A stretch of DNA of 64,000 nt from positions 44,853 to 108,852 of the forward strand of contig CAYHTW010000003.1 of the NCBI GenBank assembly GCA_964360065.1, in the 5' to 3' direction. The position numbers and the translations under genes were made by a program. How positions within the stretch are numbered: position 1 is the first letter of the stretch; each line of letters starts with the position of its first letter. The DNA comes from an uncultured Candidatus Saccharibacteria bacterium (GTDB lineage Bacteria > Patescibacteriota > Minisyncoccia > UBA6257 > Colwellbacteraceae). Shown here in pieces: positions 3,907-64,000 of this stretch. A model generated the notes under the pieces. It was not told the DNA's origin, did not search any database, and worked only from the letters and a program-made list of their open reading frames with translations.

Positions 3907-4428
3907 CTAATAAGAAATAGTGAAACGGTATTTCTTTTTAGCCCAATACAGACCGGCATAAGCAACACCTATACGGGGAGTTTTTTTAATTAATTTCTTA
4001 TCCACCCACACTCCACGGTCCTCTATCCATAAACCAGTCTTAACTGAAACGGTTTCATTAATGAAACCGCCGTTCACGCCCAGCTTCTTAGTAACTCTAC
4101 CTGGCCCGTTTATCCCCTGAACTCCTCGGATTAGAACTGCGGCAGGATAATCTTTGGGTCCAGTTACAACATTCAACATCCAATGCATACCGTAGGTGAA
4201 GTAAACATACCAGTGTCCGGCAGGACCAAACATTGGAGTATTTCTCACGGTCCTACCTCGGTGAGCATGCGAAGCTCTGTCTTGAGGCCCGTCATAAGCC
4301 TCCACTTCGGTTATCATGGCAGCAATAACTCTGCCGTTTTTATTCCTCACCAGAAACTTACCTAAAAGACCTTGGGCTACTACCAGCGTGGGTCGGTTAA
4401 AAAAGTTTTTCTTTAAGACTTTTCTCAA
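3907..4428 (-). CDS. mpg: DNA-3-methyladenine glycosylase (Mpg/AAG family)
   Basis: 173 aa with motifs LLGKFLV, ITEVEAYDGPQDRASHAHRGRTVRNTPMFGPAGHWYVYFTYGMHWMLNVV, characteristic of the alkyladenine glycosylase family. Confidence 0.8.
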   Translation of the reverse strand: MRKVLKKNFFNRPTLVVAQGLLGKFLVRNKNGRVIAAMITEVEAYDGPQDRASHAHRGRTVRNTPMFGPAGHWYVYFTYGMHWMLNVVTGPKDYPAAVLIRGVQGINGPGRVTKKLGVNGGFINETVSVKTGLWIEDRGVWVDKKLIKKTPRIGVAYAGLYWAKKKYRFTISY

Positions 4429-4481
4429 AACATTATTGGCCTAAACTAAAATCTAATCAAAATCCAGACTAAATTCCCACT

Positions 4482-4517
4482 AGTATACTATAGTACTGAT
4501 CAGTACTATAGTATACT
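4482..4517. repeat. 36-bp perfect AT-rich palindrome AGTATACTATAGTACTGA|TCAGTACTATAGTATACT, immediately 3' of the 101-aa gene; a related copy is at 41640-41697
   Basis: Checked base by base: arms are perfectly complementary over 18+18 nt around a central GATC. Confidence 0.9.
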
Positions 4518-4823
4518 CTAAAACCTGGAAGCTTCTTTAAATTCTTTTAAGATTTCTTTGGGCAGCGGCTCCCCCGGCTTGGTTTCTCCGGGATACCTCC
4601 AGGCAGAAATGACCTTTCTTTTCTTTGGCGTATCCTGCACCATCACCCAAATCTCATAAGGGTTTTTAGCCGTACCCGCTTTCTGCATCAAAGCCAGGGT
4701 CTTGTCGGCTATGCCGCCCTCTATTCTTGAGGGAAAGCTCAAAACTCTTTTAACTCTCGCTTCACTCAAACGATACTGCCTCATTTTAGACTGCGAGTGG
4801 TTTGTCCAGAGCAAAGTCTTCAT
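4518..4823 (-). CDS. Hypothetical protein (101 aa), no recognisable family
   Basis: ORF of plausible composition between mpg and the GT-C gene. No motif I can name. Confidence 0.45.
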   Translation of the reverse strand: MKTLLWTNHSQSKMRQYRLSEARVKRVLSFPSRIEGGIADKTLALMQKAGTAKNPYEIWVMVQDTPKKRKVISAWRYPGETKPGEPLPKEILKEFKEASRF

Positions 4824-4849
4824 AGTTTTGATATAATAAGTATAACAGT

Positions 4850-48362: not shown

Positions 48363-48549
48363 GTTCCTTTTTATTTTTATTTTCCCGACGCTTGCTCTAT
48401 CTTAGCACGGTGCTTGTGGATAAACGCCAAGGGCTGCTGAGACGGTGGTGAAGACCCTCATAAAATTTAGGTTTTTGGATTAGATAGGGGCTATGACAAT
48501 ATTTGACAATAGGTTGGCAACCCCCGCGCCGAGCCTAGATTAAATTTTA

Positions 48550-48671
48550 GGGCTTACGCAATTGGATGAAGTACGAGGCGAAACCGAGCATCGAACTGAG
48601 CCGTATTTTTAATAATACGGTAAAGGACGAACGGAGGTTTTAACGAAGTAGTTCGCCAATTGCGTAAGCCC
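48550..48671. other. 122-nt structured element closed by a perfect 16-bp inverted repeat (GGGCTTACGCAATTGG ... CCAATTGCGTAAGCCC), between ftsZ and nrdJ
   Basis: Verified by coordinates 48550-48565 and 48656-48671. The interior contains further hairpins (CCGTAT-N8-ATACGG; CGAA-CTAC-TTCG). Confidence 0.8.
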
Positions 48672-48674
48672 TAT

Positions 48675-49871
48675 CTATTTTCTCTTCTTCCTTAAGAATG
48701 TCGGTATATCCCAAACATCATCGTCTTTCTTGATAGGTTCGGCTTCCGTCTTTTTTAAGAACTCTGGGTTATCAACTTCCTTATTAAAATCTAACTTAGG
48801 CTCTTCTCTTTTTGTTTCAGACGCCTTCCTACCATCTCTACCAGTAAACAAACTTAAATTACTCTCTCTTTTGGTAGATAAACCATTAAACCCGGTGGCT
48901 ACTAATGTGACTTTAATCTGTCCGGCTTTTAATTTCCTGTCGCTGTAAGCTCCGAAAATTATTTTCGCCCCCGAATCAACATTTTCTGTAACTATTTTTG
49001 CGATTTCGCTAACCTCTACCATTTTTAAATCTCTGCCACCTGCAATACAAAATAAAACTCCCTTGGCTCCATCAATAGAAGTTTCTAGTAGCGGCGAGTT
49101 CACTGCTTGTGTCGCTGCTTTAATTGACCGTTCTTTGCCTTCAGAAACACCCACACCAACTACTGCTGTTCCAGAATCCCCCATAATCGCTTCTACGTCA
49201 GCGAAGTCCACATTCACGAGTCCGGCCGAAGCAATAACTTCTGTGATGCCGGAAACCGCGCTTTTTAATATGTCGTCTATTTTTTCAAAAGCTTTTAAGA
49301 TTGGAGTTTCGTTGTCTATAACACTGAAGACTCTGTCGTTGGGGATCACTATCATCGTATCCACTTTATCTTTCAGTCTTATAATTCCTTCTTCGGCAAT
49401 TCTGATTCTCTGCGATCCTTCAAAAGTAAAAGGCTTGGTGATAATGGCAATCACTAGCGCCCCCGTCTCGCGGGCAATGTCGGCCACCACCGGCGTCGCT
49501 CCTGTCCCCGTACCTCCGCCAAATCCAGCGGCCAGAAAGATCATATCCGCTCCCTGCAAGGCCTCGGCAATGTCAGCCTGGCTTTCTTCAGCTGCCTGGC
49601 GGCCCATATCCGGGTTCATACCGGCGCCCATACCTTTAGTAATAACCCTACCTATATGTATCTTTTGTTTAGCCTCCGAATACTCTAGATCCTGGGCGTC
49701 TGTATTAATCGCAATGAATTCCACTCCCCTCATAGAGTCGCGCCCCATTCTAGTGATAACGTTGCCGCCAGCTCCGCCAATACCGACTACTTTTATTTTA
49801 ACGAAAGGCTTAGCGGATTTATGGGCCGTTATTCTCCTCTTTTTATGACTTTTCCTATTCTTTTTAGGCAT
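48675..49871 (-). CDS. ftsZ: Cell division GTPase FtsZ
   Basis: 398 aa with the tubulin signature GGGTGTG, followed by a long basic C-terminal tail. Confidence 0.95.
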   Translation of the reverse strand: MPKKNRKSHKKRRITAHKSAKPFVKIKVVGIGGAGGNVITRMGRDSMRGVEFIAINTDAQDLEYSEAKQKIHIGRVITKGMGAGMNPDMGRQAAEESQADIAEALQGADMIFLAAGFGGGTGTGATPVVADIARETGALVIAIITKPFTFEGSQRIRIAEEGIIRLKDKVDTMIVIPNDRVFSVIDNETPILKAFEKIDDILKSAVSGITEVIASAGLVNVDFADVEAIMGDSGTAVVGVGVSEGKERSIKAATQAVNSPLLETSIDGAKGVLFCIAGGRDLKMVEVSEIAKIVTENVDSGAKIIFGAYSDRKLKAGQIKVTLVATGFNGLSTKRESNLSLFTGRDGRKASETKREEPKLDFNKEVDNPEFLKKTEAEPIKKDDDVWDIPTFLRKKRK

Positions 49872-49873
49872 AT

Positions 49874-51103
49874 TTAAGGTAGGAGGTTTTTCATAAATTG
49901 AACGATATTAGTCCAAAAACCAGGCAAACGTATTGCGCCAGGCTCAAATTCCCTGCCCCAAAGAAGGAGGCCCAGGACAGTGACATATTCAGGAGACTCC
50001 AGGAACGGAGCAACGTCCTTGGAGTGCATTGGAAAATACTCGGGGTGCGGCAAACCTATCTGTGTGGACAGTTTAAGCTCATCCCTAAAAAGTTCTACTA
50101 TACCCGGCAGCTTAGAACCGCCACCGGAGAGCACCACCCCTCCAGGTAATCGCCCCGCTTTACCTACTAATCTTAACTCGTTATTGATAAGTTCGCAAAT
50201 CTCGGTGAGACGCGACTCTATTATTTCAGCTATATATCTTCTTGATGGCGTACCCTTAAGATTCACATCAATCTTTTTTAAGTCTATAGTTTCTCTGGCG
50301 GGAACTTCTTTAGCCACAGCATAGCCATAAGAAATTTTTAGTTTCTCCGCTGCTTCCACCGGGATTTTTAAAGCTACTGCCAGGTCTTTGGTCACGTGTC
50401 CCGCTCCAATCGGCAACATAGTGGTGTGCAATAATTTATTCTCTTCGTAAATTGCTATACCAGTCGTACTGTAACCAACGTCAATCATAACAACTCCTAA
50501 TTCTTTTTGGTTTTTGGTGAGTGCCGCTTGAGCGGATGCCAGTGGATTAAAGATCAATCCAGAAACGCTTCCGCCGGCTAGCTCCACGCATTTCAAAAGA
50601 TTTTTAATCGCCGGGTCAAAAGCGTCAATGATAATACTCACTACTTCCAACCTGGCTCCCACCATACCCAAGGGATCTTTAATGTCGGCCACGCCATCTA
50701 CAATAAATTCTCTGGTAATCGTGTGGAGAATAGTTCTGTTGGATGGCAAATGCACCGCCTCCGAAGCCTGCATGGCCCTAGAAGTGTCATCGCGATGTAT
50801 TTCGGAGCTCGCCCTAGAGACGGCAATGATACCCCTGGAAATCTGAGAATGAATATCAGAACTGCCAAGATTCAAATAAATGTTGTGAATAGCTCCCTTG
50901 GAAAAACTTTTTACTTCCTGTAAGACGGCGTTAATAGAAGAAGCGGCTTCGTCCATATCAACCACTACTCCACGCCTCAAACCATGAGAGGGTCTTTCTA
51001 CACTATAAACGAGGGAAACTTTGTCGCCCTGTTCTTCTTCGGCTACTACAGCCCTGATTGAACTTGATCCGACGTCCAACCCTAAGATCCTATTTTTAGC
51101 CAT
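49874..51103 (-). CDS. ftsA: Cell division protein FtsA
   Basis: 409 aa actin-like; ILGLDVGSSSIRAVV and the SHS2 insert. Confidence 0.9.
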   Translation of the reverse strand: MAKNRILGLDVGSSSIRAVVAEEEQGDKVSLVYSVERPSHGLRRGVVVDMDEAASSINAVLQEVKSFSKGAIHNIYLNLGSSDIHSQISRGIIAVSRASSEIHRDDTSRAMQASEAVHLPSNRTILHTITREFIVDGVADIKDPLGMVGARLEVVSIIIDAFDPAIKNLLKCVELAGGSVSGLIFNPLASAQAALTKNQKELGVVMIDVGYSTTGIAIYEENKLLHTTMLPIGAGHVTKDLAVALKIPVEAAEKLKISYGYAVAKEVPARETIDLKKIDVNLKGTPSRRYIAEIIESRLTEICELINNELRLVGKAGRLPGGVVLSGGGSKLPGIVELFRDELKLSTQIGLPHPEYFPMHSKDVAPFLESPEYVTVLGLLLWGREFEPGAIRLPGFWTNIVQFMKNLLP

Positions 51104-51477
51104 TTTAAAATCTTCTTTTCCATACGTTCCATCTTTATCCTATCATCATAACGCCCATGGTCTAGACCTAACAAGTGGAGGAGCCCGTGTACCAGAAGAT
51201 AATCTATACTCTCGCCTCGTTTTTTGATGAATACGGGATCTAGATAAACCTCGCCTAGTAGCCTCGGCGATCCCGAACTCACCCGAGGAAACCAGGAGGG
51301 ATGTGAAAAAGACAAGACATTAGTAGTCTTGTCTTTGCCAAGATGCCGAAGATTAAGCTTCCTCATTTGTAGGGATTTAACCAGATTAATCTCGGCATAA
51401 GAATCTTTTTTGTGTAGATAGCCCAATACTTCACAAGCCAGAAGTTCAAGCCTCTTTTGTTCCTCACTCTTTCTCAC
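51082..51477 (-). CDS. ybeY: Endoribonuclease YbeY (rRNA maturation factor)
   Basis: 131 aa with the HGLLHLLGLDH zinc-binding motif. Confidence 0.9.
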   Translation of the reverse strand: MRKSEEQKRLELLACEVLGYLHKKDSYAEINLVKSLQMRKLNLRHLGKDKTTNVLSFSHPSWFPRVSSGSPRLLGEVYLDPVFIKKRGESIDYLLVHGLLHLLGLDHGRYDDRIKMERMEKKILKWLKIGS

Positions 51478-51924
51478 TTAGGCCTCTAAGTGCTTTTTAA
51501 TAATCTCGCTAACAAGCTTGCCGTCGGCTCTACCACCAATCATCTCCTTCACCGCCTTCATAATTTTACCCAGCTCACGCTCTCCTCCAGACATAGCCTG
51601 GGCAACAATTTTTTCTATTTCTGCTTCAGTGAGTTCTGAAGGAAGATATGACTGAATAACTTTAAGTTCCAACTCTTCTTTCTCTTTGAGGTCACCACGG
51701 CCAGCGCTGCCGTAAATCTCGATTGATTCTCTCCTTTTTTTAACCTCACGGCGCAACACTTCCATTATCTCCTCTTCGGTTAATGGGTCGGATGATTTGG
51801 CTCTTTTTTCTATCTCACGATTTTTAACAGCAGAAACTACCATGCGAAGCGTACCAACTTTAAAAGAATCACCCCCCTTCATGGCTTCTTTTATTTGAGA
51901 ACTTAGTTTCTCGAGGAGGTCCAT
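51478..51924 (-). CDS. GatB/YqeY domain protein
   Basis: 148 aa; LSSQIKEAMKGGDSFKVGTLRMVVSAVKNREIE matches the YqeY family. Confidence 0.8.
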   Translation of the reverse strand: MDLLEKLSSQIKEAMKGGDSFKVGTLRMVVSAVKNREIEKRAKSSDPLTEEEIMEVLRREVKKRRESIEIYGSAGRGDLKEKEELELKVIQSYLPSELTEAEIEKIVAQAMSGGERELGKIMKAVKEMIGGRADGKLVSEIIKKHLEA

Positions 51925-51925
51925 A

Positions 51926-52144
51926 TTACAAGAGGCCCAATTTCCTATCGCTTAATACCTTGGCTGTTTTCTCGGACTTATACATAGCGGAAATATGACG
52001 CTTGTTTTTAGTTACTCTGCGGTGGGAGAAGCGCCTCTTTCTCGCTTCACGCAAAACTCCGCTTTGCTGGATTCTCTTAGTAAAGCGGTGGATAAGCGAG
52101 CTGGGAGCTTCTCCGTCTCTTTTTTTTACGGCTATGCCTGACAT
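51926..52144 (-). CDS. rpsU: 30S ribosomal protein S21 (probable)
   Basis: 72 aa, basic; LIHRFTKRIQQSGVLREARKRRF resembles the S21 core (LRRFKR...G.L.E.R.R). Confidence 0.6.
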   Translation of the reverse strand: MSGIAVKKRDGEAPSSLIHRFTKRIQQSGVLREARKRRFSHRRVTKNKRHISAMYKSEKTAKVLSDRKLGLL

Positions 52145-52557
52145 TAAATAAACTTTATTATTTTTTCTTTTATAGCGGAGACCGATTCCGAAGACTGGTT
52201 TTTCACCACCGAATGTATGGATCCTCCTCCATCCCCCTCAAATCTGGGGATAAGGTGGATATGGAGATGGTCTATCGCTTGTCCGCTTACTTTACCGTGG
52301 TTTATGCCTATTGTAAAGCCATGAGGCTTGATGGCTAAATTAAGAGCTGCGGTTACTTTTCTGACTCCTAAAAATAGCGGGCCCACGACCATCTCCGGCA
52401 AATCCAGAATGTTTTCGGCATGAACCTTGGGCACTACGATCGTGTGCCCAGGAGCTAATGGATGAATATCTAAGAATGCAAAAGCAGCCTTGTCTTCGTA
52501 GATTTTTTCCGAGGGTATCTCTCCTTTTACTATTTTACAGAATAAACAATCTGCCAT
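52144..52557 (-). CDS. HIT family (histidine triad) protein
   Basis: 137 aa with the HLHIHLIP histidine triad. Confidence 0.85.
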   Translation of the reverse strand: MADCLFCKIVKGEIPSEKIYEDKAAFAFLDIHPLAPGHTIVVPKVHAENILDLPEMVVGPLFLGVRKVTAALNLAIKPHGFTIGINHGKVSGQAIDHLHIHLIPRFEGDGGGSIHSVVKNQSSESVSAIKEKIIKFI

Positions 52558-52602
52558 AATTTTATAAATTTTGAGCGAAGCGATTAAATTTATCTAAAAT
52601 GA

Positions 52603-52702
52603 TGAGCACCGAGCACTCAGTACTATTTGTCGTATTATACTTGAATTTTTGCATTGATTAAATTTTGTCACAATTATTAATAGAAAATGTTGAGTGCTCG
52701 GC
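52603..52702. repeat. Second copy of the IR-bounded intergenic element (TGAGCACCGAGCACTCAGTAC ... TTGAGTGCTCGGC)
   Basis: The left arm is 21/21 identical to copy 1. The right arm matches 11/13 against the reverse complement. The interior is different and AT-rich. Confidence 0.85.
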
Positions 52703-52749
52703 TGAAGTTTGATAGATACATTTTGTCGTCCATAACTCCAAAATGTATA

Positions 52750-54057
52750 TCAAGCCTTCAGCCTTCTCTTAACTTCTTCAATAATCTTGCTTATAGGAAT
52801 GGATTCCTGCACTCCTGTTGCCATATCTCTTAATATAATATTCCCATCATAGGCTTCTTTTTGTCCCAATATAAGAGCAAAAGGCGCATTCACTTTAGCA
52901 GCGCGTTCTAACTGAGCCGAAAGCGAATCCTTACCCAAAGCCTCAGAAATAGGCACGTTGGCTTTTCTAAATTCCTCAACCAGCAAGAGCGCTCTCTTTT
53001 TAGTCATTTCTCCAACATGCACCAAAAATATTTTAGATTTCACTTTATTAACTTGGTCCTTTGAGTCGGCTCTTAGCATTTCTACAATACGCTCCAACCC
53101 AGCAGCAACTCCGGTAGCCGGAGTGGGCCTGCCTCCCAACATTTCAGACAAATAATCATATCTACCTCCAGAGGCGATAGCTAAGTCGCTTCCTTCACGA
53201 AAGATTTCAAAAACAGTTCTGTTATAGTAATCCAACCCTCTTACAAGATACGGATTTAAAGTGTATGGGATGCTGACTTCGTCCAGATATTCTAAGGCTT
53301 CCTTAAAGTGTTTCTTACAAGCCACACACAAGCTATCTAAGATAGACGGCGCCCCGAGTTTAACTGGCTGGCAGGCATCGTTTTTACAATCCAGCAGACG
53401 AAGTGGATTTTTCTCCAATCTCCCATCGCATTCCTTGCAAATGTCCTGCTTCTTATAGTATTCAATAAGCTTTTTCTTATAGTTAGGCCGGCAGACTCGG
53501 CAACCAATGCTATTAATCTGCACCATTAGATTTTTAGCTTTTAGCTCTTCTAAATATCGGTAAGCCAGTATTATAACTTGCGCATCGTAGATAGGATCCC
53601 CCTCTCCGCCTAATATTTCAAAGCCTAATTGATTAAATTGCCTATATCTGCCAGCTTGAGGTTTTTCGTGTCTAAAAACCGGGCCTAGGTAATACAACTT
53701 CAAAGGCTGGGGCAGGCGATGCAACCCGTTTTCTATGTAACTTCTTACAACAGGCGCAGTGAACTCCGGCCGCAACGCCAACCTGTCTCCTCCCTTGGTG
53801 CGTAAAACAAACATCTCCTTTTCTACAATGTCAGTCGCTTCTCCAACCCCGCGAACAAAAAGGTCCACGTTTTCTAAAATAGGGGTTTCAATACGGGCAA
53901 AATTATAAAAATCAGCCACATCTTTCGCGGCCCTGTAGACCTTGTCCCATAATGGCCGGTCAGCAGGAAGTATGTCGTGCATCCCTTTAGGCGATTGGAA
54001 AGTCAATATTTTTGCTTCCTTCACCTTCTTAACCGGTTCTTTCTGATTGATGGACAT
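52750..54057 (-). CDS. hisS: Histidyl-tRNA synthetase
   Basis: 435 aa; class II motifs and an anticodon-binding C-terminus (GMHDILP..., FRHEKPQAGRYRQFNQ, GGRYD). Confidence 0.93.
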   Translation of the reverse strand: MSINQKEPVKKVKEAKILTFQSPKGMHDILPADRPLWDKVYRAAKDVADFYNFARIETPILENVDLFVRGVGEATDIVEKEMFVLRTKGGDRLALRPEFTAPVVRSYIENGLHRLPQPLKLYYLGPVFRHEKPQAGRYRQFNQLGFEILGGEGDPIYDAQVIILAYRYLEELKAKNLMVQINSIGCRVCRPNYKKKLIEYYKKQDICKECDGRLEKNPLRLLDCKNDACQPVKLGAPSILDSLCVACKKHFKEALEYLDEVSIPYTLNPYLVRGLDYYNRTVFEIFREGSDLAIASGGRYDYLSEMLGGRPTPATGVAAGLERIVEMLRADSKDQVNKVKSKIFLVHVGEMTKKRALLLVEEFRKANVPISEALGKDSLSAQLERAAKVNAPFALILGQKEAYDGNIILRDMATGVQESIPISKIIEEVKRRLKA

Positions 54058-54059
54058 TA

Positions 54060-54611
54060 TTAAGAAGATAACTTGTAACTCGGTTCTTCAAAAAAAGTCA
54101 GGCTTTTTAAGGGGTAAAATCTCAAGCGAACAATACCGATGATTCCTTTTTCATCCAACAGTCCCCAGCTTCTGGAATCAGAGCTCTGCGTACGATTGTC
54201 TCCCATCACGAAATATTTTCCACTCTGTAAAGTAAAGTTTTTCTGCCCTGCCCCACCGTTTTTAACATTAATGTAGCTTTCGTTAAGCTTCTCTCCGTTT
54301 ATCTCCACGCTATCATTTGTTACCGCCACTTGTTCACCCGGCAAGCCAATGATTCTCTTAATATAGAATTCCGACTCGTTCCTGGGGTTCTTAAAAACAA
54401 TTATTTCCCCTCTTTCCGGCTCGCGTAGCTTATAAGTAATCTCGTCAACCAAGACGTATTGGCGGCTATAAAAAGTCGGCTCCATACTTGGGCCATCGAC
54501 AATAAATGGTAGAACGACTAAAGTTCTGATTAGAAAAAAAGATATTAAAGCAACAGCTAAAACTTCTATGACTTCCCAAAAAGGCAGAAGAAATTGTTTC
54601 ATTCGCTGCAT
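54060..54611 (-). CDS. lepB: Signal peptidase I (LepB)
   Basis: The ORF track extends to 54752, but that would overlap pth. The likely start is MQRMKQFL... at 54611. The catalytic VDGPSMEPT (Ser) and GDNRTQSSDSRSWG boxes are present. Confidence 0.85.
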   Translation of the reverse strand: MQRMKQFLLPFWEVIEVLAVALISFFLIRTLVVLPFIVDGPSMEPTFYSRQYVLVDEITYKLREPERGEIIVFKNPRNESEFYIKRIIGLPGEQVAVTNDSVEINGEKLNESYINVKNGGAGQKNFTLQSGKYFVMGDNRTQSSDSRSWGLLDEKGIIGIVRLRFYPLKSLTFFEEPSYKLSS

Positions 54612-54667
54612 TCTAATACAATAAATAGGTGCCTGCAAGCCAGGTAGTAAAAGTTTAATCATATAAA

Positions 54668-55234
54668 ATGATGAATTATAAATATAAGCTTTTGATAGGA
54701 CTGGGTAATCCAGGCCCCGATTATGCGTTAACTTACCATAACGCTGGGTCATTTTTTATAGATCTTCTTTCAAGTGGCAAGAAATTCAAAAAAACGGATG
54801 GTTTTGTTTACTCTAAAATCGGTGATGTAGTTTTAATAAAACCGTTGTCCTTCATGAACGAGTCTGGTGCTTCGGTTAAACTGGCTATAAAATACTTTAA
54901 AACTACTCTCTCCGAGACTCTCATTATCCACGACGATTCGGATCTTAGTATGGGTGAGTATAAATTCGCCACTAACCGAGGCTCGGCAGGTCACAATGGC
55001 ATCAAGTCTATTATGGAAGTCTGTAAGACCAGTGACATTAACCGCCTTCGTTTGGGAATCAGGCACAATACTCAAGAGGGCCGATTAAAAGCCGGTCTGC
55101 CTCGCCGCCCGCTTCGCCAAATCGAGGTAAGAGCCAAGGCGGGGGATTTTGTCCTGACGCCTATGGGTAAAAAAGATATAGCTGCCCTGCAAGGCATCGC
55201 CAGTAACCTTAAAAGAGATCTGCTGGGTTCTTAA
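54668..55234 (+). CDS. pth: Peptidyl-tRNA hydrolase
   Basis: 188 aa; LLIGLGNPGPDYALTYHNAGSFFID is the Pth signature. Confidence 0.92.
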   Translation: MMNYKYKLLIGLGNPGPDYALTYHNAGSFFIDLLSSGKKFKKTDGFVYSKIGDVVLIKPLSFMNESGASVKLAIKYFKTTLSETLIIHDDSDLSMGEYKFATNRGSAGHNGIKSIMEVCKTSDINRLRLGIRHNTQEGRLKAGLPRRPLRQIEVRAKAGDFVLTPMGKKDIAALQGIASNLKRDLLGS

Positions 55235-55250
55235 GACCTACCGTGACGCT

Positions 55251-56762
55251 TTACTCTGGGAAATTCATGTCTCTCACCAAGAAAGTAGCCTGGAAAGACA
55301 CCTTGCCATCCGATTTCATAACTATGCCGGAAAAAGGCACGCTGACATTGGCAAATTGGCTCTGAGAGTCAAGTCTCTTTTTAAAATCCAGCACGGAATT
55401 CTGATCTGGAGCAGTGCCAAAAATCAAAATTGGGGAAGAAAGCGATTGAATGGTTAATTTATCAAAAGAAATATTGTCTCCTGCCAATTGGCCTAAATAA
55501 TTAAGGAATGGGGTAATTCTTACATCCGACTCTTGGGCGGATTTTACTAAATCAACTACCTTATTAAAAGCTGTCGCTTGAACCCGTAAAGCCGCAAGCT
55601 CCGGAGTTGCCACCTCGGTATTCCCACCCTGAATAACTGTGGTAGCTAGTTTATCGGCTAATCTAGAGACATAAATGTCGCTTGCGGAAAAAACCAGGAG
55701 AATAAAACTTATCACCGTTATGAAAACTTTCCTCCAAAGATAAGTGAATTCCAAAACTTCCTGTTGCTCAAATATTTTGACAGCTGACTCTCCAGTTAAA
55801 CTGATGTTAGTATCTTCGGCTCTCCTAATAAGTCCCCTTAAGGCAGCGCCGGCCACGGCCGTTACTTCCTCCGAAGGAATGGAACTAACTTTCATATCTG
55901 GGAATTTCTTATTTACAGCTTCGGCGATTTCTGCGCCTAAAGAGGATGTTACTACGATCATATTTTTAAGTTGGTCTCCAGATCGGCCTATATAGAAGTT
56001 CAAAACTTTAGCCACTTCATTGTCTACCGCCGTTTCCATATTTGTGAGCGTAATGCTTCTCTCACCTGCCAGCACCAACTTCCAAGGATAAAAGTAGCTA
56101 AAATAAACGCTATTGTTCTTAGTAACGATGAAATCAAGCCCTTCGACGGTTACGTGCATCACTAAATAAGAGGAAGTCTCGTCAAGCTTCCCCAAGCTAA
56201 CCAGCTGCCGCACTAAGCTTAGTGCCGAAAACTCTACAGCTGCGACGCTAAAATTAGCTTCGTGCAAAGCGATAACTATGTTATCAATGCTCTCTGACGG
56301 CATAAAAGCCCCTAGAAGTTCTATAACTCCGCCAGGACCTCCCGTATCAGCTATTTTCTGCCAGCCGTAATAAGCTCCTTCTATTGGCATTGGAGAAATC
56401 ATACGTAAGTTAAGTTCCGCTGCCTCTGTTAGGTTAGATTCGGCAGCTTTAGAAACATTGAAAGATTGAACGTATACATCATTGCCAGAGAGAGTCAGAA
56501 TAATATTAATAATTTTTTTAGAATCAACAGTGATCTGCGAATGTATTGTTCTTAAAGCCTCTGTAAAGTTAGTTTCTTCCCCACGATGCACCTTGCCGTC
56601 TTCAACTATACCTGGAGGCAACCTTAAGGAAGCTACAGGAGCGCTGCCATAAGATAAATCATAAAAATTAATTACCGAATCGGTTATTTCTAAACCGCCT
56701 ATCTGTGGTGTAGGAAAAATCAAACGGTTAAAATTTCTTAAAGTTTTTTTGAAATCCATCAT
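55251..56762 (-). CDS. pilM: Type IV pilus assembly protein, PilM (actin-like) fused to a PilN/PilO-like TM + periplasmic region
   Basis: 503 aa; the N-terminal ~330 aa are actin-fold-like, followed by a single TM (FITVISFILLVFSASDIYV) and a periplasmic coiled region. Sits in the pilus gene context. Confidence 0.55.
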   Translation of the reverse strand: MMDFKKTLRNFNRLIFPTPQIGGLEITDSVINFYDLSYGSAPVASLRLPPGIVEDGKVHRGEETNFTEALRTIHSQITVDSKKIINIILTLSGNDVYVQSFNVSKAAESNLTEAAELNLRMISPMPIEGAYYGWQKIADTGGPGGVIELLGAFMPSESIDNIVIALHEANFSVAAVEFSALSLVRQLVSLGKLDETSSYLVMHVTVEGLDFIVTKNNSVYFSYFYPWKLVLAGERSITLTNMETAVDNEVAKVLNFYIGRSGDQLKNMIVVTSSLGAEIAEAVNKKFPDMKVSSIPSEEVTAVAGAALRGLIRRAEDTNISLTGESAVKIFEQQEVLEFTYLWRKVFITVISFILLVFSASDIYVSRLADKLATTVIQGGNTEVATPELAALRVQATAFNKVVDLVKSAQESDVRITPFLNYLGQLAGDNISFDKLTIQSLSSPILIFGTAPDQNSVLDFKKRLDSQSQFANVSVPFSGIVMKSDGKVSFQATFLVRDMNFPE

Positions 56763-56770
56763 AGTAAATT

Positions 56771-57211
56771 TTAAAATGGCTTCTCCTGCATTGAGATTAC
56801 TATAATCTGCCCGCTAAAAGCATCTACTCCCATCACGGCCTCAAACCGCTTTTTTCTTGTACCTGCGTTTCCGATTGAAACAACTTTTAAGGTGCCGTCG
56901 GCATTATCTATAACGCCAACCGTTGCGGAAGCCGTATCAACAGTTAAGGGATAAGTGGTAACTCCATCACAGGTTATACTGAATGCTGTGGCTAAAGCGC
57001 TGCAGTTTTTATAACGTACAATTTTAACAGCAGCGTCTTCCGCTCCGGTTCTGGCCGCCACTAATGCCTGAGCTGCCAGCTTTGAACTTGCCACCGTATT
57101 GCTAACTAAAACTCCGACAATGAGTCCGGAGATAGCCAATTCCATCACGATACCTGATATAAGCAATATTGCCGCTAAGGTTGCCGCTCCTTTTTTTATT
57201 TGTATTGTCAT
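56771..57211 (-). CDS. Hypothetical N-terminally anchored protein in pilus cluster (possible minor pilin/TadE-like)
   Basis: 146 aa; the hydrophobic N-terminus KKGAATLAAILLISGIVMELAISG lacks a canonical G/FTLIE prepilin motif. Confidence 0.35.
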   Translation of the reverse strand: MTIQIKKGAATLAAILLISGIVMELAISGLIVGVLVSNTVASSKLAAQALVAARTGAEDAAVKIVRYKNCSALATAFSITCDGVTTYPLTVDTASATVGVIDNADGTLKVVSIGNAGTRKKRFEAVMGVDAFSGQIIVISMQEKPF

Positions 57212-57214
57212 TTC

Positions 57215-60200
57215 TTACGGAGACCAATTAACTATAACATCATCAACTCTAGGTGAAGTAGCAGTATCAACTTTCTGTAGAATTACCTTATATCGGTAAT
57301 ATCTCGTGCCCTTACTGTAGGCACCATTTAACGGGACTGGAGAGTTTGGGCCACTAGTAGTGTAGTAAGTACCGGTTGATCCTCCAGGACCAAGATAAGT
57401 CCAGGCGCCTGTGTTGCAAGTGGGAGCATTAGTCTGACCACCTGGGCAATTGGAGGCGGCAAACTGGAAAGTGACGTAATTGGTACCTCCTGTCCCTAGG
57501 GCTCCTTGCCACATAAGTGAATTGTGATTCACGCCTTTAGTGAAGCCTGTGTCATATGTGCTGGAAATTAACGAACCGGTGGTAAGGACTCCGATTATAA
57601 ACCCGCCGCTAAAAGTTCCGGTCTGGGTATCAGGATTGGTCACCCTAACATCCCAAGCTCCATTAGCCGCTCCTGTGATGGGACAAGTTCCATTAGAAAG
57701 AGTTGTGGAATTAGTAAAGATAAAACCTGTGCAATTGATGGTTGTCTGGCCCGATTTCAAAAGTGATACCGTTGCTCCAGAAATAAAGTTAGTGCCCGAA
57801 ACGGAAATGATAGAAACGGGTGCGTTGTTGATGCCGCTCGTTGGGTTAATCGCAGTAGTGGTAGGAGCCGCTAGAGAAGTAGTAAAACTCCCATCGGCGG
57901 AATAAGACGTACCTATGCTGTTGGTGGCGTAGCCTCGGTAATAGATAAGGGTGCCTGGCGGCATTCCAGATCTGGCCTGAGTGAAAACTCCCGTGGTGGT
58001 GCCTCCTTCAGCAGTACAGTTAGTTGTTGGGGTGGCTGTGGTTGCCCAGCATGTGCCTTTGGCTGTAAGAGTGATGCCTCCATTAGAAGTGACATTAGCA
58101 CCGAGCGTGACGCCTGTAGGGGTAATGGAAGTGGCGGTGGGAGAAGTGACGGTTGGAAGTCCCGTCACACTAAATGTTCCGTTACTTGTGAAAGTATGAA
58201 TAGTATTTGCGCCACTAGTTGTTATCGTGCCGCCAGTAACAGTATAAGCAGAGAAATCTGCGGTTACGTAAGAAATAATAACTATACCAATTACTCCAAC
58301 TTTCCCATTCCCACTTGGGCTAGAACCCATGCCTCCACTTCCTTTTTCAGTACGGTCACCTTGACCACTAGAATAACTACCACCAACGCCGTAAGTTACA
58401 GCAGACCCAGAAATTGAATTTACAATTCCAGGTCCTGGAGTATAACCACTACCATCTCCTCCAGCGCCACCGCCGCCACCTTCCCAGGCGCTATTTGCTG
58501 CCCCGTCTCCTCCTTTACCACCCTGAAAACCAATTCCACCTGCTCCTCCACCTTCCATAGATCCTCCCCCACCAGAACCACCACTACTACCTGCATTACT
58601 TAGGGAACCGTATGCTCCTCCTCCGCCGCCATAGGCAATCGTGGCTGAAAAAACTGAGTTGCCACCATTCCCGCCTTGTCCAGCTCCACCATTAATTCCA
58701 GCGACGCCCGCCGCTCCAACTGTAACAGAATACGCTTGGGTGGTAACTGGAAGGGCAGCATTATATTGATAACCACCCGCACCCCCTCCTCCTCCCCTAT
58801 TGGTGTAACTTGCTCCTCCTCCGCCCCCTCCTCCTACTGAAAATACTTTTACCGCTCCAATAGGAGCTCCCGGCACAATAGAGAAAATCCCGCTTGTCGT
58901 GAAAGTATGAATAGTATTTGCGCCACTAGTTGTTATCGTGCCGCCAGTAACAGTATAAGCAGAGAAATCTGCGGTTACGTAAGAAATAATAGTAACCCCA
59001 GAACCACCAGCCCCTCCTTTATAGTAGCCACCACCACTACCTCGAGTGCCTCCACCTCCTCCACCAAGACCATTTGTTCCAGCATAACCATCGCCTCCAA
59101 GTCTTCCTGCTGCTCCTCCACCATTACCACCCGATCCCTGTCCTGCTCCACCTGCCCCCCCTCCACCACCAGCGTAATATATACTTGATCCACTAATATC
59201 ATTAGAAAAACCAGCGCCACCATTTCCACCGACTCCATTTGGACTAGCGGCATCGGTTCCATTTAAACCAATTGCTCCGGCTCCCCCTCCTCCAGCGCCC
59301 CCTCCCTCTGTGCTTTCTCCTCCGTGGCCTCCGTTATATCCTTGACTTGCAGTTCCTCCGATACCTCCATTATTACTTTCAGCACCACCCCCACCACCAC
59401 CAGACCCTCCGTTTCTTCCATTTGTTCCACTACCACCAACACCTCCACCTCCACCTCCATTTCCGGTTATAGTTGAAAAACTAGATGCAGCACCATCGTT
59501 TCCTTGATTACCTACACTAGAAGCAGTCCCACCAACACCAACAATAACTGTATAATCTTGTGCAATAACAGAAAAAGAAGCATTGTATTGATAACCACCC
59601 GCACCACCCCCACCACCATTACGAGACCAAGAGGTTTGAGATCCCCCACTACCTCCACCTCCTATTACCAATGCTTTTACTTTCATCTTAAGAGTCACTG
59701 TAAAAATCCCGCTTGTCGTGAAAGTATGAATAGTATTTGCGCCGCTGGTCGTTACCGTGCCGCCAGTGATAGTGTATGCAGACCAGTCTGCCGTAACATA
59801 GCTGATGATGACGACTCCTGTGCCGCCAGTGCCTCCTGTATTACTTTTTGAACCGCCGCCGCCACCGCCGGTATTTGGTGTTCCGTTTTGCGGAGTAGCG
59901 GCTACAGATCCATTCCCACCGCCACCAACTCCACCAGTGCCTCCAGAATCATTATTACCACCACCTCCTCCACCACCTGCGTAAGTAACGGAAACGCCTG
60001 AAATTGAATTTGCTGTTCCTGCGCCGCCATTCGCTCCCTCATCATCTCCTGCATTTGCTCCTGCAGCAGAAGCTCCTCCTCCCCCTCCGCCCGCGCCTCC
60101 CGATGTCCCACCGTTATTTCCCTGACCAGATGTTCCTGTACCGTTCGCATAGTTATTACCGCCCCCACCACCGCTACCACCATTAACTCCCACACCCGAA

Positions 60201-60568
60201 GAAAGAGTACGTCCTCCTCCACCTCCTACTGCTGTATGTGTCGCAAAAACGCTATTCCCCCCCGGTGAGCCATTTTGTGTTCCATTAGACGGCCCACCAG
60301 CGCCGCCTCCTCCAACGGTTACCGAGTATGCCTGCGGTGTTACGGCAATGGCGGCATTATAAATATATCCACCCGCTCCTCCACCTCCCCCAGCAGTATT
60401 ACCGCTACCTACACTGGCGCCACCGCCTCCGCCTGCTACTACAAGCACATTTACTGTCGCTACAGAATGCGCAGGAGGAGTTCCGTACATAAAGCTTCCT
60501 ATGGTTAATAAACTAACTAAGATGGTTACCCCCCCTCCCGCGAATATGTGTTTTTTGGTGATTTTCAT
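57215..60568 (-). CDS. Giant glycine-rich modular surface protein (1117 aa): signal anchor, three Gly-rich modules each ending in a conserved ~40-aa block, C-terminal Thr/Ser-rich FN3-like and IPT/TIG-like domains
   Basis: Single uninterrupted ORF. The N-terminus is MKITKKHIFAGGGVTILVSLLTIGSF. The block ISYVTAD(W/F)SAYT(I/V)TGGT(V/I)TTSGANTIHTFT recurs three times. Gly runs take the form GGGGGAGGY(I/Q)YNA...AYSVTVG. The C-terminus contains YYRGYATNSIGTSY (FN3-like) and SIISVSGTNFISGATV...WDVRVTNPDTQTGTF (IPT/TIG-like). Confidence 0.7.
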   Translation of the reverse strand: MKITKKHIFAGGGVTILVSLLTIGSFMYGTPPAHSVATVNVLVVAGGGGGASVGSGNTAGGGGGAGGYIYNAAIAVTPQAYSVTVGGGGAGGPSNGTQNGSPGGNSVFATHTAVGGGGGRTLSSGVGVNGGSGGGGGNNYANGTGTSGQGNNGGTSGGAGGGGGGASAAGANAGDDEGANGGAGTANSISGVSVTYAGGGGGGGNNDSGGTGGVGGGGNGSVAATPQNGTPNTGGGGGGSKSNTGGTGGTGVVIISYVTADWSAYTITGGTVTTSGANTIHTFTTSGIFTVTLKMKVKALVIGGGGSGGSQTSWSRNGGGGGAGGYQYNASFSVIAQDYTVIVGVGGTASSVGNQGNDGAASSFSTITGNGGGGGGVGGSGTNGRNGGSGGGGGGAESNNGGIGGTASQGYNGGHGGESTEGGGAGGGGAGAIGLNGTDAASPNGVGGNGGAGFSNDISGSSIYYAGGGGGAGGAGQGSGGNGGGAAGRLGGDGYAGTNGLGGGGGGTRGSGGGYYKGGAGGSGVTIISYVTADFSAYTVTGGTITTSGANTIHTFTTSGIFSIVPGAPIGAVKVFSVGGGGGGGASYTNRGGGGGAGGYQYNAALPVTTQAYSVTVGAAGVAGINGGAGQGGNGGNSVFSATIAYGGGGGAYGSLSNAGSSGGSGGGGSMEGGGAGGIGFQGGKGGDGAANSAWEGGGGGAGGDGSGYTPGPGIVNSISGSAVTYGVGGSYSSGQGDRTEKGSGGMGSSPSGNGKVGVIGIVIISYVTADFSAYTVTGGTITTSGANTIHTFTSNGTFSVTGLPTVTSPTATSITPTGVTLGANVTSNGGITLTAKGTCWATTATPTTNCTAEGGTTTGVFTQARSGMPPGTLIYYRGYATNSIGTSYSADGSFTTSLAAPTTTAINPTSGINNAPVSIISVSGTNFISGATVSLLKSGQTTINCTGFIFTNSTTLSNGTCPITGAANGAWDVRVTNPDTQTGTFSGGFIIGVLTTGSLISSTYDTGFTKGVNHNSLMWQGALGTGGTNYVTFQFAASNCPGGQTNAPTCNTGAWTYLGPGGSTGTYYTTSGPNSPVPLNGAYSKGTRYYRYKVILQKVDTATSPRVDDVIVNWSP
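58188..59812. repeat. Three tandem intragenic DNA repeats (period ~710-820 bp) with >95-nt identical cores starting at 58188, 58899 and 59718
   Basis: GTGAAAGTATGAATAGTATTTGCGCCACTAGTTGTTATCGTGCCGCCAGTAACAGTATAAGCAGAGAAATCTGCGGTTACGTAAGAAATAATA is identical in copies 1 and 2. Copy 3 is diverged. The plus-strand ORFs 58196, 58907 and 59504 beginning MNSICA... are artefacts of this repeat. Confidence 0.9.
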
Positions 60569-60578
60569 ATGATAATAT

Positions 60579-61268
60579 TTATGGAACGGTTATTGAGCCC
60601 GGAGTTGTAGTGGTGTCTAAACCACTCTGCGATGAATAGCCATTACTTGGTTGTGTTATGGGGCCTTCTGTGCCAGAGCTTCCGCTCCAATCGGTGAAAT
60701 TGCTAGTCTGGTTAACGTAGTGAGTTACATAGCCCGTATTTTTAAAGTCCCCCGTGCCGCCCACGGTTTGTGGCCAAGTAACTCTCACTGTTATTTTTTG
60801 AGTTGAAGGGTCTTCTAAGATATCACTAAATAAACCCGTGCAGGCAGTTTGCGCAGAACTAGTAACGCTACCAGTACCACAACTGTCACGATTGACGTTT
60901 TCCACGGTAAAGTAGCGCGTATAAACTATATTATTGACTGTCAGTTGCTCACTATTGTTAGTTAGAGTGAACGGGCTACCACCGGTGGCAAGATAATAAC
61001 AGTAAGGGGTGCAGGCCTGCGTTGTGTCTCCCTTGGAAATAACCGCATAAAGATCTTGCCAGTTAGCTTCTCCATAAGAACGGACATTGTCCATTAACTC
61101 TTGAGCGAGTGAAGAGGCTGTGTCAGTAATACGGCTTGCTTGATTACTCTTGATAGTTGTGACAAAAGCCGCGGCGGCGGAGGCGACAATAATCGCGCCA
61201 ACGGCAACGGCAATTAGTATTTCTATCAAAGATTGTCCTTCTCTTTCTTTAATAATCGATTCTACCAT
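60579..61268 (-). CDS. Type IV pilin-like protein (prepilin-type N-terminal methylation domain), 229 aa
   Basis: KEREG|QSLIEILIAVAVGAIIVASAAAAF is a class III signal plus hydrophobic alpha1 with Glu at +5. The C-terminal Ser/Thr-rich domain has Cys pairs. Confidence 0.7.
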   Translation of the reverse strand: MVESIIKEREGQSLIEILIAVAVGAIIVASAAAAFVTTIKSNQASRITDTASSLAQELMDNVRSYGEANWQDLYAVISKGDTTQACTPYCYYLATGGSPFTLTNNSEQLTVNNIVYTRYFTVENVNRDSCGTGSVTSSAQTACTGLFSDILEDPSTQKITVRVTWPQTVGGTGDFKNTGYVTHYVNQTSNFTDWSGSSGTEGPITQPSNGYSSQSGLDTTTTPGSITVP

Positions 61269-61743
61269 TGATGTTAACTGTTATAGTGTTTGAGTCAGAT
61301 ACGCTCACTAAACCAAGTGTAACATTCACGGTAGCCGTGGGCAATCCGGTGGCTTTATTGAAAACAATATTCTTAGAAGTTCCTGAAGCCGGATCGGTAA
61401 ATTGTACCTTATTATTCAATACATACCTCTGTGATTCAGCCGCACCAACACCTTCGGCAGCGCAAGAAGTGCTAGGGGCAGTGTAAGATGTCCCGTAACA
61501 GAGATACATAACGTCATTTGCGCCCCCGGCAGGATTATCAAAGCGCATCCACCATTGGTATCCCCCGTCTTGAGAGATAGCTTTGGCTGCGGCGTTATTA
61601 AGTTGCTTCACGGTTATTTGCACCTGATTATCAAGAGTCGATTTAGTTCCAGAACCTATCATAAGTTGGGTCGAGATGACAGAAATGATTACAATCACCC
61701 CCAGTATTATCATCAGCTCTATCAAAGTGAAACCTTTTCTCAT
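61249..61743 (-). CDS. pilA: Type IV pilin (major pilin candidate), 164 aa
   Basis: MRKG|FTLIELMIILGVIVIISVIS is a canonical prepilin leader with the G/F cleavage site and E5. Confidence 0.8.
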   Translation of the reverse strand: MRKGFTLIELMIILGVIVIISVISTQLMIGSGTKSTLDNQVQITVKQLNNAAAKAISQDGGYQWWMRFDNPAGGANDVMYLCYGTSYTAPSTSCAAEGVGAAESQRYVLNNKVQFTDPASGTSKNIVFNKATGLPTATVNVTLGLVSVSDSNTITVNINGRIDY

Positions 61744-61746: not shown

Positions 61747-62961
61747 TTATCCTATTGTACCAACTAGCTGGTAAATTGGGACGATGATGGCCAAAGCAAT
61801 AGTAGCCACCACAAAACCGATAACTAGCAAAAGGACTGGCTCCAAGAAAGAAATTAAAGTCTTGGTGGAGGCGTCAATTTCTGATTCATAAAACTCGGCT
61901 AAAGTATCCAAAATATTTTCCATGTGGCCCGCTTTCTCGGAAATAGCTATCAGGTTAACCACCACTCTTGGGAAAATCTGCTCCCTCCTGAAAGCTTCTC
62001 CAATGGTAAGTCCTTTTGGAACTGCGTCTCGCGATATTCGCAGTAACGCTTCTCTCATCTCCATGTGCCCCACCGAATCGGCTGTAATTTCCAAAGAATC
62101 TAAGATGGACATACCGCTTTTTAGCAGCGACGAGAAAGTCGCCGCAAATCTTTGGATAGCAATTCTATAAAGAATATCTCCCACTATAGGCGCTCTCGCT
62201 AAAAACCTTCCCATCATGGCGCGCCCCGCCACTGTTCTCTTGAAGAAATACCACCCACCCACCAAACCAATAAACAAAGCTGGGAAAATAATGTATGACC
62301 AGGCATTGACGAAAAGTCCCACTCCGAAAACTATCCTGGAGAAAGTCGGCGGTTGGACGCCGCCTGACATAAAAACGTTAGCGATTTTAGGCAAGGCAAA
62401 AGTCACCATGCCGAAAAGGATAACCAGGGCGAGAACGACCAGTACCATCGGATAAATAAGGGCGGCTTTAATTTTACCTCTGATAACCTGCTCTTTTTCT
62501 AGGCTACGGCTCAAATCATCAAAAACTTTTTCCAAATTACCGGAAGTTTCTCCGGCTTTAATAAGGTTAACAAAGACCGGAGAGAAATATTTTGGATATT
62601 TAGTAAAAGTGGAATAAAACGGCTGCCCCTTAGCTAGGGTATCACGAACTTCTATAAGAAGGGACTTAATTGCTGGCTTATCAAAATCCGTTATTAAGAT
62701 ATCAATGGCCTTGAAGAGATCAGTGCCTACTTTAAGCATTAGTGCTAGATACTTAGTTAAGAAAACCTTGTCTTCCACCGTTATCTGCTGAGCAAAGATA
62801 CCACGCAAACCAGTAGTACTAGCTCCGGCCACAGCTTTAACCGAAACCGGCCTTAGGCCTTGTGCGGCCATCCATTCCAAAACCTCGGCTGGACCCTTGG
62901 CTTCTATATCTCCCTCAACCACTCTGCCACCAGGCTCGGAGGCTATGTAATAAAATCTCAT
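61747..62961 (-). CDS. pilC: Type IV pilus platform protein PilC (GspF family)
   Basis: 404 aa; two GspF repeats, 3 TM, typical PilC. Confidence 0.9.
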   Translation of the reverse strand: MRFYYIASEPGGRVVEGDIEAKGPAEVLEWMAAQGLRPVSVKAVAGASTTGLRGIFAQQITVEDKVFLTKYLALMLKVGTDLFKAIDILITDFDKPAIKSLLIEVRDTLAKGQPFYSTFTKYPKYFSPVFVNLIKAGETSGNLEKVFDDLSRSLEKEQVIRGKIKAALIYPMVLVVLALVILFGMVTFALPKIANVFMSGGVQPPTFSRIVFGVGLFVNAWSYIIFPALFIGLVGGWYFFKRTVAGRAMMGRFLARAPIVGDILYRIAIQRFAATFSSLLKSGMSILDSLEITADSVGHMEMREALLRISRDAVPKGLTIGEAFRREQIFPRVVVNLIAISEKAGHMENILDTLAEFYESEIDASTKTLISFLEPVLLLVIGFVVATIALAIIVPIYQLVGTIG

Positions 62962-62962: not shown

Positions 62963-64000
62963 TTATTCTCTTATAACTCTTAATAATTCGTCTATGGTCG
63001 TCACGCCCGTTTCTATTTTTCGGAGACCATCCTCAAACATAGTTATCATGCCCTCCTCCTTAGCAAGCTGTCTTAGTTTATCCAAAGAAAAATCCGGGCT
63101 GATAATTAATTTCCTCACCTCCTCGGTAACGTTCAGTACCTCAAAAATACCAATTCTGCCTCGGTAACCGCTACCTCCGCAAACAGAACAACCTTTGCCG
63201 GCGTAAATAAACTTAGGCATCTTAAAGTTATCTGTGATGCCAAGATCTTTAACTTGTTTAGATAAGGCTGCAATAAGTTCTTCGGATGGAGCATAAGAGT
63301 ACATACAACTCTTACAAATTTGTCTCACTAATCTCTGGGCTATGATTATGTTAAGCACGGCTGCAACCAGAAAAGGTTGTACATTGATATCTATAAACCG
63401 CGGCACGGCAGTTGTTGCGTCGTTAGTGTGCAGAGAAGACAGCACCAAGTGTCCGGTTAGAGCCGATTGCACTGCGATTTCAGCTGTTTCAGAATCACGG
63501 ATTTCACCAACCATTATGACGTTAGGGTCTTGGCGCAGGATAGCGCGCAGTCCGTCTGCAAAAGTTATGCCAGCCTTCACGTTGATCTGCGTTTGGTTAA
63601 TAAATTTAATATCGTACTCAACTGGGTCTTCCACGGTAACAATATTAACCTCCGGCCTGTTCAAACGTCCTAAAACAGAATAAAGAGTGGTTGATTTACC
63701 GCTCCCCGTCGGACCTGTTACAAGCATCATGCCGTAACTCTTTTTGATATTCTCTTCCAAAATCTTCACCGTGTCGGGCAGCATACCAAGTTCAGTAAAT
63801 GAAAGTGGCCTCGTGCTGGCAGGCAATAATCTCATTTCTACTTTCTCTCCGTAAAAGGTCGGCATAACAGCGACACGGATGTCTATAACATCTCTGCCAA
63901 TTTGGTATCTGAACCTTCCGTCCTGTGGACGAGAATGTTCGTCTATTTTTAGTCCTCCTAGAAGCTTAATCCTGGCCGCAACTGCAGGGTGTATTTCTTT
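62963..64000 (-). CDS. pilB: Type IV pilus assembly ATPase PilB/GspE, C-terminal ~345 aa (N-terminus beyond window end)
   Basis: The ORF track starts at an internal Met (63865), but the frame stays open to 64000. Walker A LVTGPTGSGKSTT, Asp/His boxes, and the tetracysteine motif CKSC...CSVCGGSGYRGR are present. Confidence 0.9.
   Translation of the reverse strand, partial: KEIHPAVAARIKLLGGLKIDEHSRPQDGRFRYQIGRDVIDIRVAVMPTFYGEKVEMRLLPASTRPLSFTELGMLPDTVKILEENIKKSYGMMLVTGPTGSGKSTTLYSVLGRLNRPEVNIVTVEDPVEYDIKFINQTQINVKAGITFADGLRAILRQDPNVIMVGEIRDSETAEIAVQSALTGHLVLSSLHTNDATTAVPRFIDINVQPFLVAAVLNIIIAQRLVRQICKSCMYSYAPSEELIAALSKQVKDLGITDNFKMPKFIYAGKGCSVCGGSGYRGRIGIFEVLNVTEEVRKLIISPDFSLDKLRQLAKEEGMITMFEDGLRKIETGVTTIDELLRVIRE

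Follow-up and report, generated by a model that had tools for sequence, protein, structure and literature searches.

We analyzed a 64,000-nucleotide stretch of contig CAYHTW010000003.1 (hereafter the window, to which positions refer unless another contig is named) from a tiny groundwater bacterium of the Paceibacterota, a member of the Candidate Phyla Radiation (CPR). On the minus strand, inside a type-IV-pilus-like operon, an open reading frame (ORF) at 57215-60568 encodes a protein of 1117 amino acids (aa), predicted to be secreted or anchored at the surface. Translation and comparison with Pfam and PHROGs delimit in it an N-terminal hydrophobic anchor, three successive units of a glycine-rich module followed by a connector, and a C-terminal region of 315 aa. 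The modules belong to the Pfam family Gly_rich_2 (PF21722), which matched the protein over three stretches with 164.2 bits (E = 6e-48; gathering score, 24.3 bits), the single modules scoring 92, 52, and 52.4 bits. In PHROGs, the protein matched phrog_2295, a family of unknown function (E = 3.9e-105), and, weakly, several tail-fibre families. A search of NCBIfam gave no match for the protein, and a Pfam search of its C-terminal 361 aa gave none either. The N_methyl pilin motif (PF07963) had no Pfam match in the protein and was found in the adjacent genes. The exact 1117-aa sequence was absent from the gene-position index.

Read in the direction of translation, the protein starts with a hydrophobic signal or anchor segment (aa 1-34, MKITKKHIFAGGGVTILVSLLTIGSF..., 60467-60568). 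Module A follows (aa 35-257; 59798-60466), covering positions 13-225 of the 226 in the Pfam profile, and is joined through connector A (59703-59810) to module B (aa 284-530; 58979-59719), which is delimited by Pfam and by an AlphaFold model. Connector B (58884-58991) leads to module C (aa 557-767; 58268-58900, from Pfam), and connector C (58163-58282) is followed by the tail rather than by a further glycine-rich module. The tail, or C-terminal region (aa 803-1117; 57218-58162), has no Pfam match, and comparison with relatives resolves three sub-domains in it: first a "GTCW" domain of wide occurrence (about aa 803-900), then a middle domain (about aa 901-993), and a terminal domain (about aa 994-1117; 57218-57589). 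The terminal domain, which also lacks a Pfam match, ends in VDDVIVNWSP and forms the C-terminus of many architectures, including pilin fusions and LamG and fn3 proteins.

The connectors carry a DNA repeat whose copies are numbered by window position, opposite to their order in the protein, where copy 3 comes first. Copy 1 (58188-58280, in connector C) and copy 2 (58899-58991, in connector B) are identical over 93 nucleotides (nt) without a mismatch and lie 711 nt, or 237 codons, apart in frame. Copy 3 (59718-59810, in connector A) lies a further 819 nt (273 codons) away, again in frame, and shares 73 of 93 positions (78.5%) with each of the other two. Its initial 26 nt match both exactly, and its differences are chiefly C/T and G/A changes at third codon positions. 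In addition, copies 2 and 3 have an exact run of 41 nt in common (58884-58924 and 59703-59743). Connector B is thus a mosaic, identical to connector C over 93 nt and to connector A over 41 nt, with the overlap formed by the 26-nt core common to all three. The edges of the 93-nt identity are sharp, and the flanks diverge at once. The copies encode (V/T)IISYVTAD(F/W)SAYT(V/I)TGGT(I/V)TTSGANTIHTFT at aa 763-794 (copy 1), 526-557 (copy 2), and 253-284 (copy 3), a span that takes in the final five residues of a Gly_rich_2 domain, some 26 residues not covered by the Pfam model, and the residue with which the next domain opens. The original prediction had described a core repeated three times in frame within the glycine-rich gene, encoding a conserved inter-module block that indeed follows each module, with a recognizably related third copy. 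All of this was borne out, as was the identity of copies 1 and 2, whose length we correct from about 96 nt to 93 nt.

Within the window, a 26-nt probe allowing up to three mismatches found the three repeat sites only, and none in shuffled sequence. The 93-nt pair constitutes the longest exact repeat, and once the 93-nt and 41-nt runs are set aside, the longest exact direct repeat measures 22 nt. Tandem Repeats Finder reported no module-scale array. A weaker intragenic repeat, encoding GGGGGAGGY(Q/I)YNA..., occurs at 58716-58795, 59538-59617, and 60312-60391 (73-75% identical) and contains a 20-nt exact match at 58764 and 59586.

Origin of the identical connectors

Within the Gly_rich_2 family, no part is better conserved than the connector peptide. 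It recurs after modules in homologues from many lineages, and multi-module proteins of Patescibacteria and phages carry the same motif, GGSGvVIISY...GGtiTtsG.nTIHTFTSSGTFtV, after each module. This family-wide conservation explains why copy 3 is still recognizable, but it leaves the complete lack of synonymous differences between copies 1 and 2 unexplained. The module bodies are old: outside the connector they are 54-56% identical in nucleotides, and 55-63% of the codons that encode the same residue differ. For modules B and C, the sequence outside the tract is 56% identical with insertions and deletions, and 48 of the 87 same-residue codons differ (55%), as against none of 31 codons within it. 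Since the bodies are divergent and the connector is identical, only the connector is young. Three homologous tandem modules must ultimately stem from duplication, which speaks for a recent copying of the whole module followed by divergence everywhere but in the connector. The contrast between the adjacent codons is nonetheless too uneven for a single recent duplication, which makes this scenario exceedingly improbable. The recent intragenic duplication put forward in the original prediction is therefore not upheld.

To judge whether connectors are generally alike in DNA, we compared 36 control pairs in the same 31-codon register; in each, both connectors came from a single Gly_rich_2 gene other than that of the window and shared at least 22 of 31 residues. 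In these pairs, 45% of the same-residue codons differed, no pair had fewer than four codon differences, and the longest exact run was 33 nt. At the control rate, 0 of 31 codon differences would arise by chance with P ~8e-9. Likewise, four genes with three to five connectors, checked at the DNA level (on contigs L074, L076, L077, and L078), contained no exact intragenic repeat of at least 28 nt and, unlike the window gene, no perfect 93-nt connector identity. Together, the control pairs and these divergent genes argue that the perfect identity reflects a local and recent event rather than a rule of the family. That the connectors of the family are DNA-identical as a rule was ruled out by these pairs, these four genes, and the eight-module gene on contig L060 described below.

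The timing of this event is narrowed by contig L160, the sole close lineage for which DNA is available (87% identical). Its single orthologous connector is a codon-level patchwork that differs from each window copy at 19-22 of the 93 sites, so the identity between connectors B and C would be far younger than the split from L160. Searched against the metagenome and viral contig collections, a 35-nt core of the repeat found no exact counterpart.

Selection alone could in principle hold two copies together, either through constraint on the protein combined with codon bias or through a function of the nucleotide sequence itself, such as an RNA structure, a protein binding site, or a template/variable pair of a diversity-generating retroelement (DGR). 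The connector peptide is the most conserved in the family, and the RNA fold of the tract was marginally stabler than that of shuffled sequences (z = -1.9; 7 of 200 shuffles were as good). However, connectors elsewhere that are equally conserved show the 45% codon difference given above, and copy 3 and the L160 orthologue, with nearly the same peptide, each depart from the tract at about 20 of 93 nt. The changes in copy 3 are, moreover, not adenine-specific, and all copies are coding and reside in one gene. Overall, we consider selection alone highly improbable. Two of its specific forms were rejected: a DGR pair, given that copies 1 and 2 have no mismatches, that copy 3 lacks adenine-specific changes, and that every copy is coding within a single ORF; and a role in RNA structure, for which z reached -1.9 only.

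We favor, as the probable explanation, a recent short-tract gene conversion between connectors B and C. The identity extends to synonymous sites far beyond what the flanks would predict and ends at sharp borders, the pattern by which gene conversion is recognized. Selection on the connector peptide would keep the three copies recognizable, leaving the connectors as the only stretch of the module alike enough in DNA for homologous recombination. A conversion-type exchange between B and C would then have wiped out every difference over 93 nt and left the module bodies old and divergent. The resulting in-frame perfect repeat, its copies 711 nt apart, would now be usable for RecA-type unequal exchange, which could remove or add exactly one module. 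Events of this kind are known: in a modular surface protein, a short conserved segment would have undergone concerted evolution.

Two observations weigh against this explanation. One conversion does not cover the additional 41-nt run that connectors A and B share, which requires either chance (~0.03) or a second event. In addition, the eight-module gene on L060 contains many exact intragenic tracts of 50-131 nt that are scattered through the units rather than placed in the connectors. That gene (L060 7996-17772) is a Paceibacterota ORF of 3259 aa composed of eight Gly_rich_2 plus "GTCW" units, and its exact tracts look like the ongoing homogenization of a much larger array.

The mosaic structure of connector B also admits a different history, in which it marks the joint of one unequal crossover between a terminal, C-type connector and an internal, A-type connector of diverged alleles or of a paralogue. 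Such a single event would add a module, turning 2-module genes into a 3-module gene. The arrangement of the mosaic (93 nt equal to C at the 5' side and 41 nt equal to A at the 3' side, around the 26-nt shared core) is the hybrid expected from a single exchange, and diverged partners do exist, the alleles found at this slot in related lineages being very different. On the other hand, beyond the core the identity of A and B amounts to just 15 nt, that is, 5 of 5 same codons, which is expected by chance at ~0.03. A functional requirement may explain why connectors ahead of a module have TTSGIF in common, and our homology searches found no 2-module allele of either the A-B-tail or the A-C-tail type. 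Weighing these points, we regard the crossover as possible but rather unlikely.

Repeats of this kind can also mislead assembly, yielding a chimera or a wrong copy number from a repeat in the short-read graph, and the original prediction had warned of a collapse. Part of this concern is justified: independent short-read contigs do break in the gene, L159 at 58780 and L001 and L089 inside the orthologues, and public samples cover the population only thinly (contig names give a coverage of 3-4), the Hainich groundwater assemblies ERZ1292621 and ERZ1292641 being among those that contain it. However, the independent contig L159, from Hainich groundwater, matches the window exactly from 58780 to 55000, including module C (100% identical), copy 1, and the tail. 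Over 58780-52763 it is 99.77% identical, with 13 mismatches and one gap further downstream, and it ends inside the 58716-58795 copy of the weaker repeat. The 93-nt repeat should be shorter than usual reads and final k-mers. Because the start of module C can be reached solely via a connector carrying the 93-mer, the assembled order would be the only linear path, and an error could concern only how often module C occurs. No interruption breaks the reading frame, and architectures of this type are common in the family. For connector B and module B, we found no independent contig or protein covering them. Taken together, we judge an assembly artefact very unlikely. In L159 itself (4119-6024), gene calling splits both the signal-peptidase gene and the histidyl-tRNA synthetase gene in two, probably owing to frameshift errors in a contig of coverage 4 or because L159 truly differs from the window.

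Fold of the glycine-rich modules

We modeled aa 262-545 with AlphaFold, using an alignment of 22 modules, and obtained a predicted local distance difference test score (pLDDT) of 90.9 and a predicted template modeling score (pTM) of 0.89. In the model, the connector residues lie in confident beta-strands: VTIISYV forms the final strand of the preceding module, and TVTTS, NTIHTF, and GIFTV pack against the following one. The connector accordingly combines the strand that closes one module with a short linker and a beta-hairpin. Foldseek searches against PDB matched the model to the tail tip of mycobacteriophage Bxb1 (9d93_Q, E = 2.6e-5) and to the fibre of cyanophage Pam3 (7ypx_A, E = 5.1e-5), both with probability 1.00, as well as to the glycine-rich domain (GRD) of ALK (7lir). 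E-values for the three ranged from 2.6e-5 to 4.5e-2, and the TM-scores were moderate (0.37-0.50). A profile of the modules compared with PDB sequences again pointed to the Pam3 fibre (7yfw, E = 6.6e-5). In its published description, Pam3 gp24 has a TNF-like sandwich that continues as a glycine lattice, a conserved glycine stem, and a hypervariable receptor-binding tip (PMC9608196). Based on the structural and profile matches and on this description, each module is predicted to be a domain of the phage-receptor-binding type, with a fold combining a TNF-like beta-sandwich and a polyglycine lattice, and we infer that the modules would bind receptors.

The similarity of fold thus extends to phage fibre tips (Pam3 gp24, PDB 7YPX/7YFW; Bxb1, 9D93) and to the ALK/LTK GRD (7LIR). 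Unlike in the phage fibre tips, the domain here occurs three times in one protein of a pilus operon encoded on a cellular chromosome, and not in a trimeric phage fibre. Gly_rich_2 homologues number in the thousands and combine one to eight modules with variable accessory domains; among them, we found no close orthologue of the full 3-module architecture.

The pilus operon and its variable slot

The genes around the glycine-rich ORF, all on the minus strand, belong to the pilus-like operon. Profile matches identify a PilB-like ATPase (T2SSE; 62963-63865) and a PilC-like protein (T2SSF; 61747-62961), and Pfam identifies two pseudopilins with N_methyl motifs (61249-61743 and 60579-61268), the latter of 229 aa and ending 10 nt before the 1117-aa ORF starts. 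Downstream of the variable gene lie a 146-aa protein (56771-57211) that has a hydrophobic N-terminus and no Pfam match, and a 503-aa protein (55251-56762) that weakly matches PilN and is conserved in every syntenic relative. The 146-aa protein was found in most syntenic relatives (L001, L081, L159, L160, and L161), with no match seen in L082, and could serve the variable gene product as a specific partner, for instance a chaperone or a pilus component.

In relatives, the terminal domain, the Gly_rich_2 modules, or both are fused to an N_methyl pilin (L081, L161/P0128, P0123, and P0241; contigs are labeled L and proteins P), and the terminal domain can follow the pseudopilin directly. Specifically, the pseudopilin orthologues in L161, L081, and L082 run on in frame into the terminal domain, and the fused relatives L081, L082, P0123, P0128, and P0241 all have the N_methyl motif. 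Through these fusions, the glycine-rich modules are functionally linked to the pilus. In the fusions of its relatives and in its own operon context, with the PilB-like, PilC-like, and two N_methyl pseudopilin genes, the locus resembles type IV pilus minor pilins with C-terminal adhesin domains. In contrast to those pilins, the window protein lacks the N-methylation motif and is encoded by a separate ORF after the pseudopilin. When the literature was searched for glycine-rich pilus proteins of Patescibacteria, no publication was found.

Close relatives were missed by a homology search with the whole protein, which was swamped by glycine-rich words, and were recovered with the non-repetitive tail as the query. 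A regular-expression screen of 73 genome loci yielded few multi-connector genes, since most of these loci had been recruited through the tail domain. A query with the N-terminal 565 aa returned P0126 as the only close relative and no protein covering module B.

Against the arrangement in the window (a pseudopilin, then a separate ORF with anchor, three modules, and tail), the syntenic slot in related genomes holds zero, one, two, or three glycine-rich modules. L160 (protein P0126) has one: its anchor, module A, and single connector are followed directly by the terminal domain. It is 86.8% identical in nucleotides to 60580-59700 and 88.1% to 57601-56979, and between them lacks 2103 nt comprising modules B and C and two tail domains, with the left edge of the gap at the 3' end of connector A. 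In L160 (1-74 and 243-1747), the one-module gene lies directly downstream of tRNA-Lys(CTT) and not of a pseudopilin; homology to the window starts just 12 nt before the ATG, and the upstream synteny is broken. L161 (P0128) has no module, its pseudopilin being fused in frame to the terminal domain. Compared with it, the window contains about 3.0 kb extra (60582-57581) that splits one pilin-adhesin gene into two ORFs; this segment holds a stop codon, an 8-nt spacer, a new start with a membrane anchor, the three modules, and two tail domains.

Other relatives differ in domain order as well. The syntenic L081 encodes the pseudopilin, terminal domain, fn3, and two Gly_rich_2 modules in one protein of 1105 aa, and the syntenic L082 encodes the pseudopilin, terminal domain, fn3, and a Cys/Thr-rich segment, with no module. 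These two genes (L081 1885-5199; L082 2082-4373) are near-identical up to the fn3 region and then wholly divergent within the same ORF, a second example of cassette replacement. In the syntenic L001 (P0123), labeled Candidatus Paceibacterota and 80-90% identical in protein over 47676-58157, an N_methyl pilin is joined to the same three tail domains without any module, and the part homologous to the window starts precisely where connector C ends. P0124 carries two tail domains in the opposite order, and P0241 combines the N_methyl motif with two Gly_rich_2 domains.

The differing counts imply that modules have been gained and lost at this locus, which, as judged by sequence comparison, is a hypervariable, domain-shuffled slot. 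The breakpoints at domain edges may simply reflect the products that survive selection. The original prediction had suggested that the repeat can drive such gain or loss. Module number does vary, with 3, 2, 1, or 0 modules, but none of the variants is a simple 711-nt deletion or duplication, and searches by homology and by exact core found no protein or contig with a 711-nt variant bounded by the 93-nt repeat. A role for the 93-nt repeat in module gain and loss is therefore best described as plausible, and modules may be lost or gained through it in future.

In repeat-containing adhesins, such as streptococcal alpha C/Rib and staphylococcal SasG/Aap, in-frame intragenic DNA repeats likewise accompany length differences between strains. 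Length in those surface adhesins changes by recombination between repeats, and whole units are near-identical in DNA. Here, by comparison, the 93-nt connector alone is identical and the units are only about 55% identical, which sets the gene apart from DNA-identical tandem repeats. An exchange would consequently swap or remove non-equivalent modules.

A second syntenic slot, likewise hypervariable and found in other CPR genomes, lies between an ABC-F gene and the ATP synthase operon and holds Gly_rich_2 proteins of 1313-1861 aa. Those of L074, L076, L077, and L078 measure 1446, 1861, 1713, and 1313 aa, and their accessory domains differ (Laminin_G_3, Fibrinogen_C). In L074, a Y1 transposase gene adjoins the Gly_rich_2 gene.

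Recombination and attachment

Intragenic recombination in modular surface proteins is well known, and the process described here is an ordinary one acting in an unstudied protein family. What is newer is that a pilus-associated protein from an uncultivated Paceibacterota lineage carries repeated modules whose fold resembles that of phage receptor-binding domains, at a locus that is rearranged among close relatives: its module number and domain order differ between genomes that are otherwise 78-90% identical. In practical terms, the gene marks a spot where short-read metagenome-assembled genomes fragment, and the 93-nt repeat predicts 711-nt length variants in population reads.

A broader, doubtful idea is that connectors serve CPR bacteria as standard recombination joints at which divergent phage-fibre-like modules are shuffled, inserted, or deleted on a pilus-associated adhesin. 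Equally speculatively, the DNA involved might be taken up from related strains, and connector B might be the scar of one such insertion. If true, shuffling at these joints would direct the bacteria to new hosts or surfaces for attachment. CPR bacteria are believed to rely on attaching to other cells, and for this reason a rapidly reshuffled pilus-associated adhesin represents a concrete candidate for a determinant of host range.

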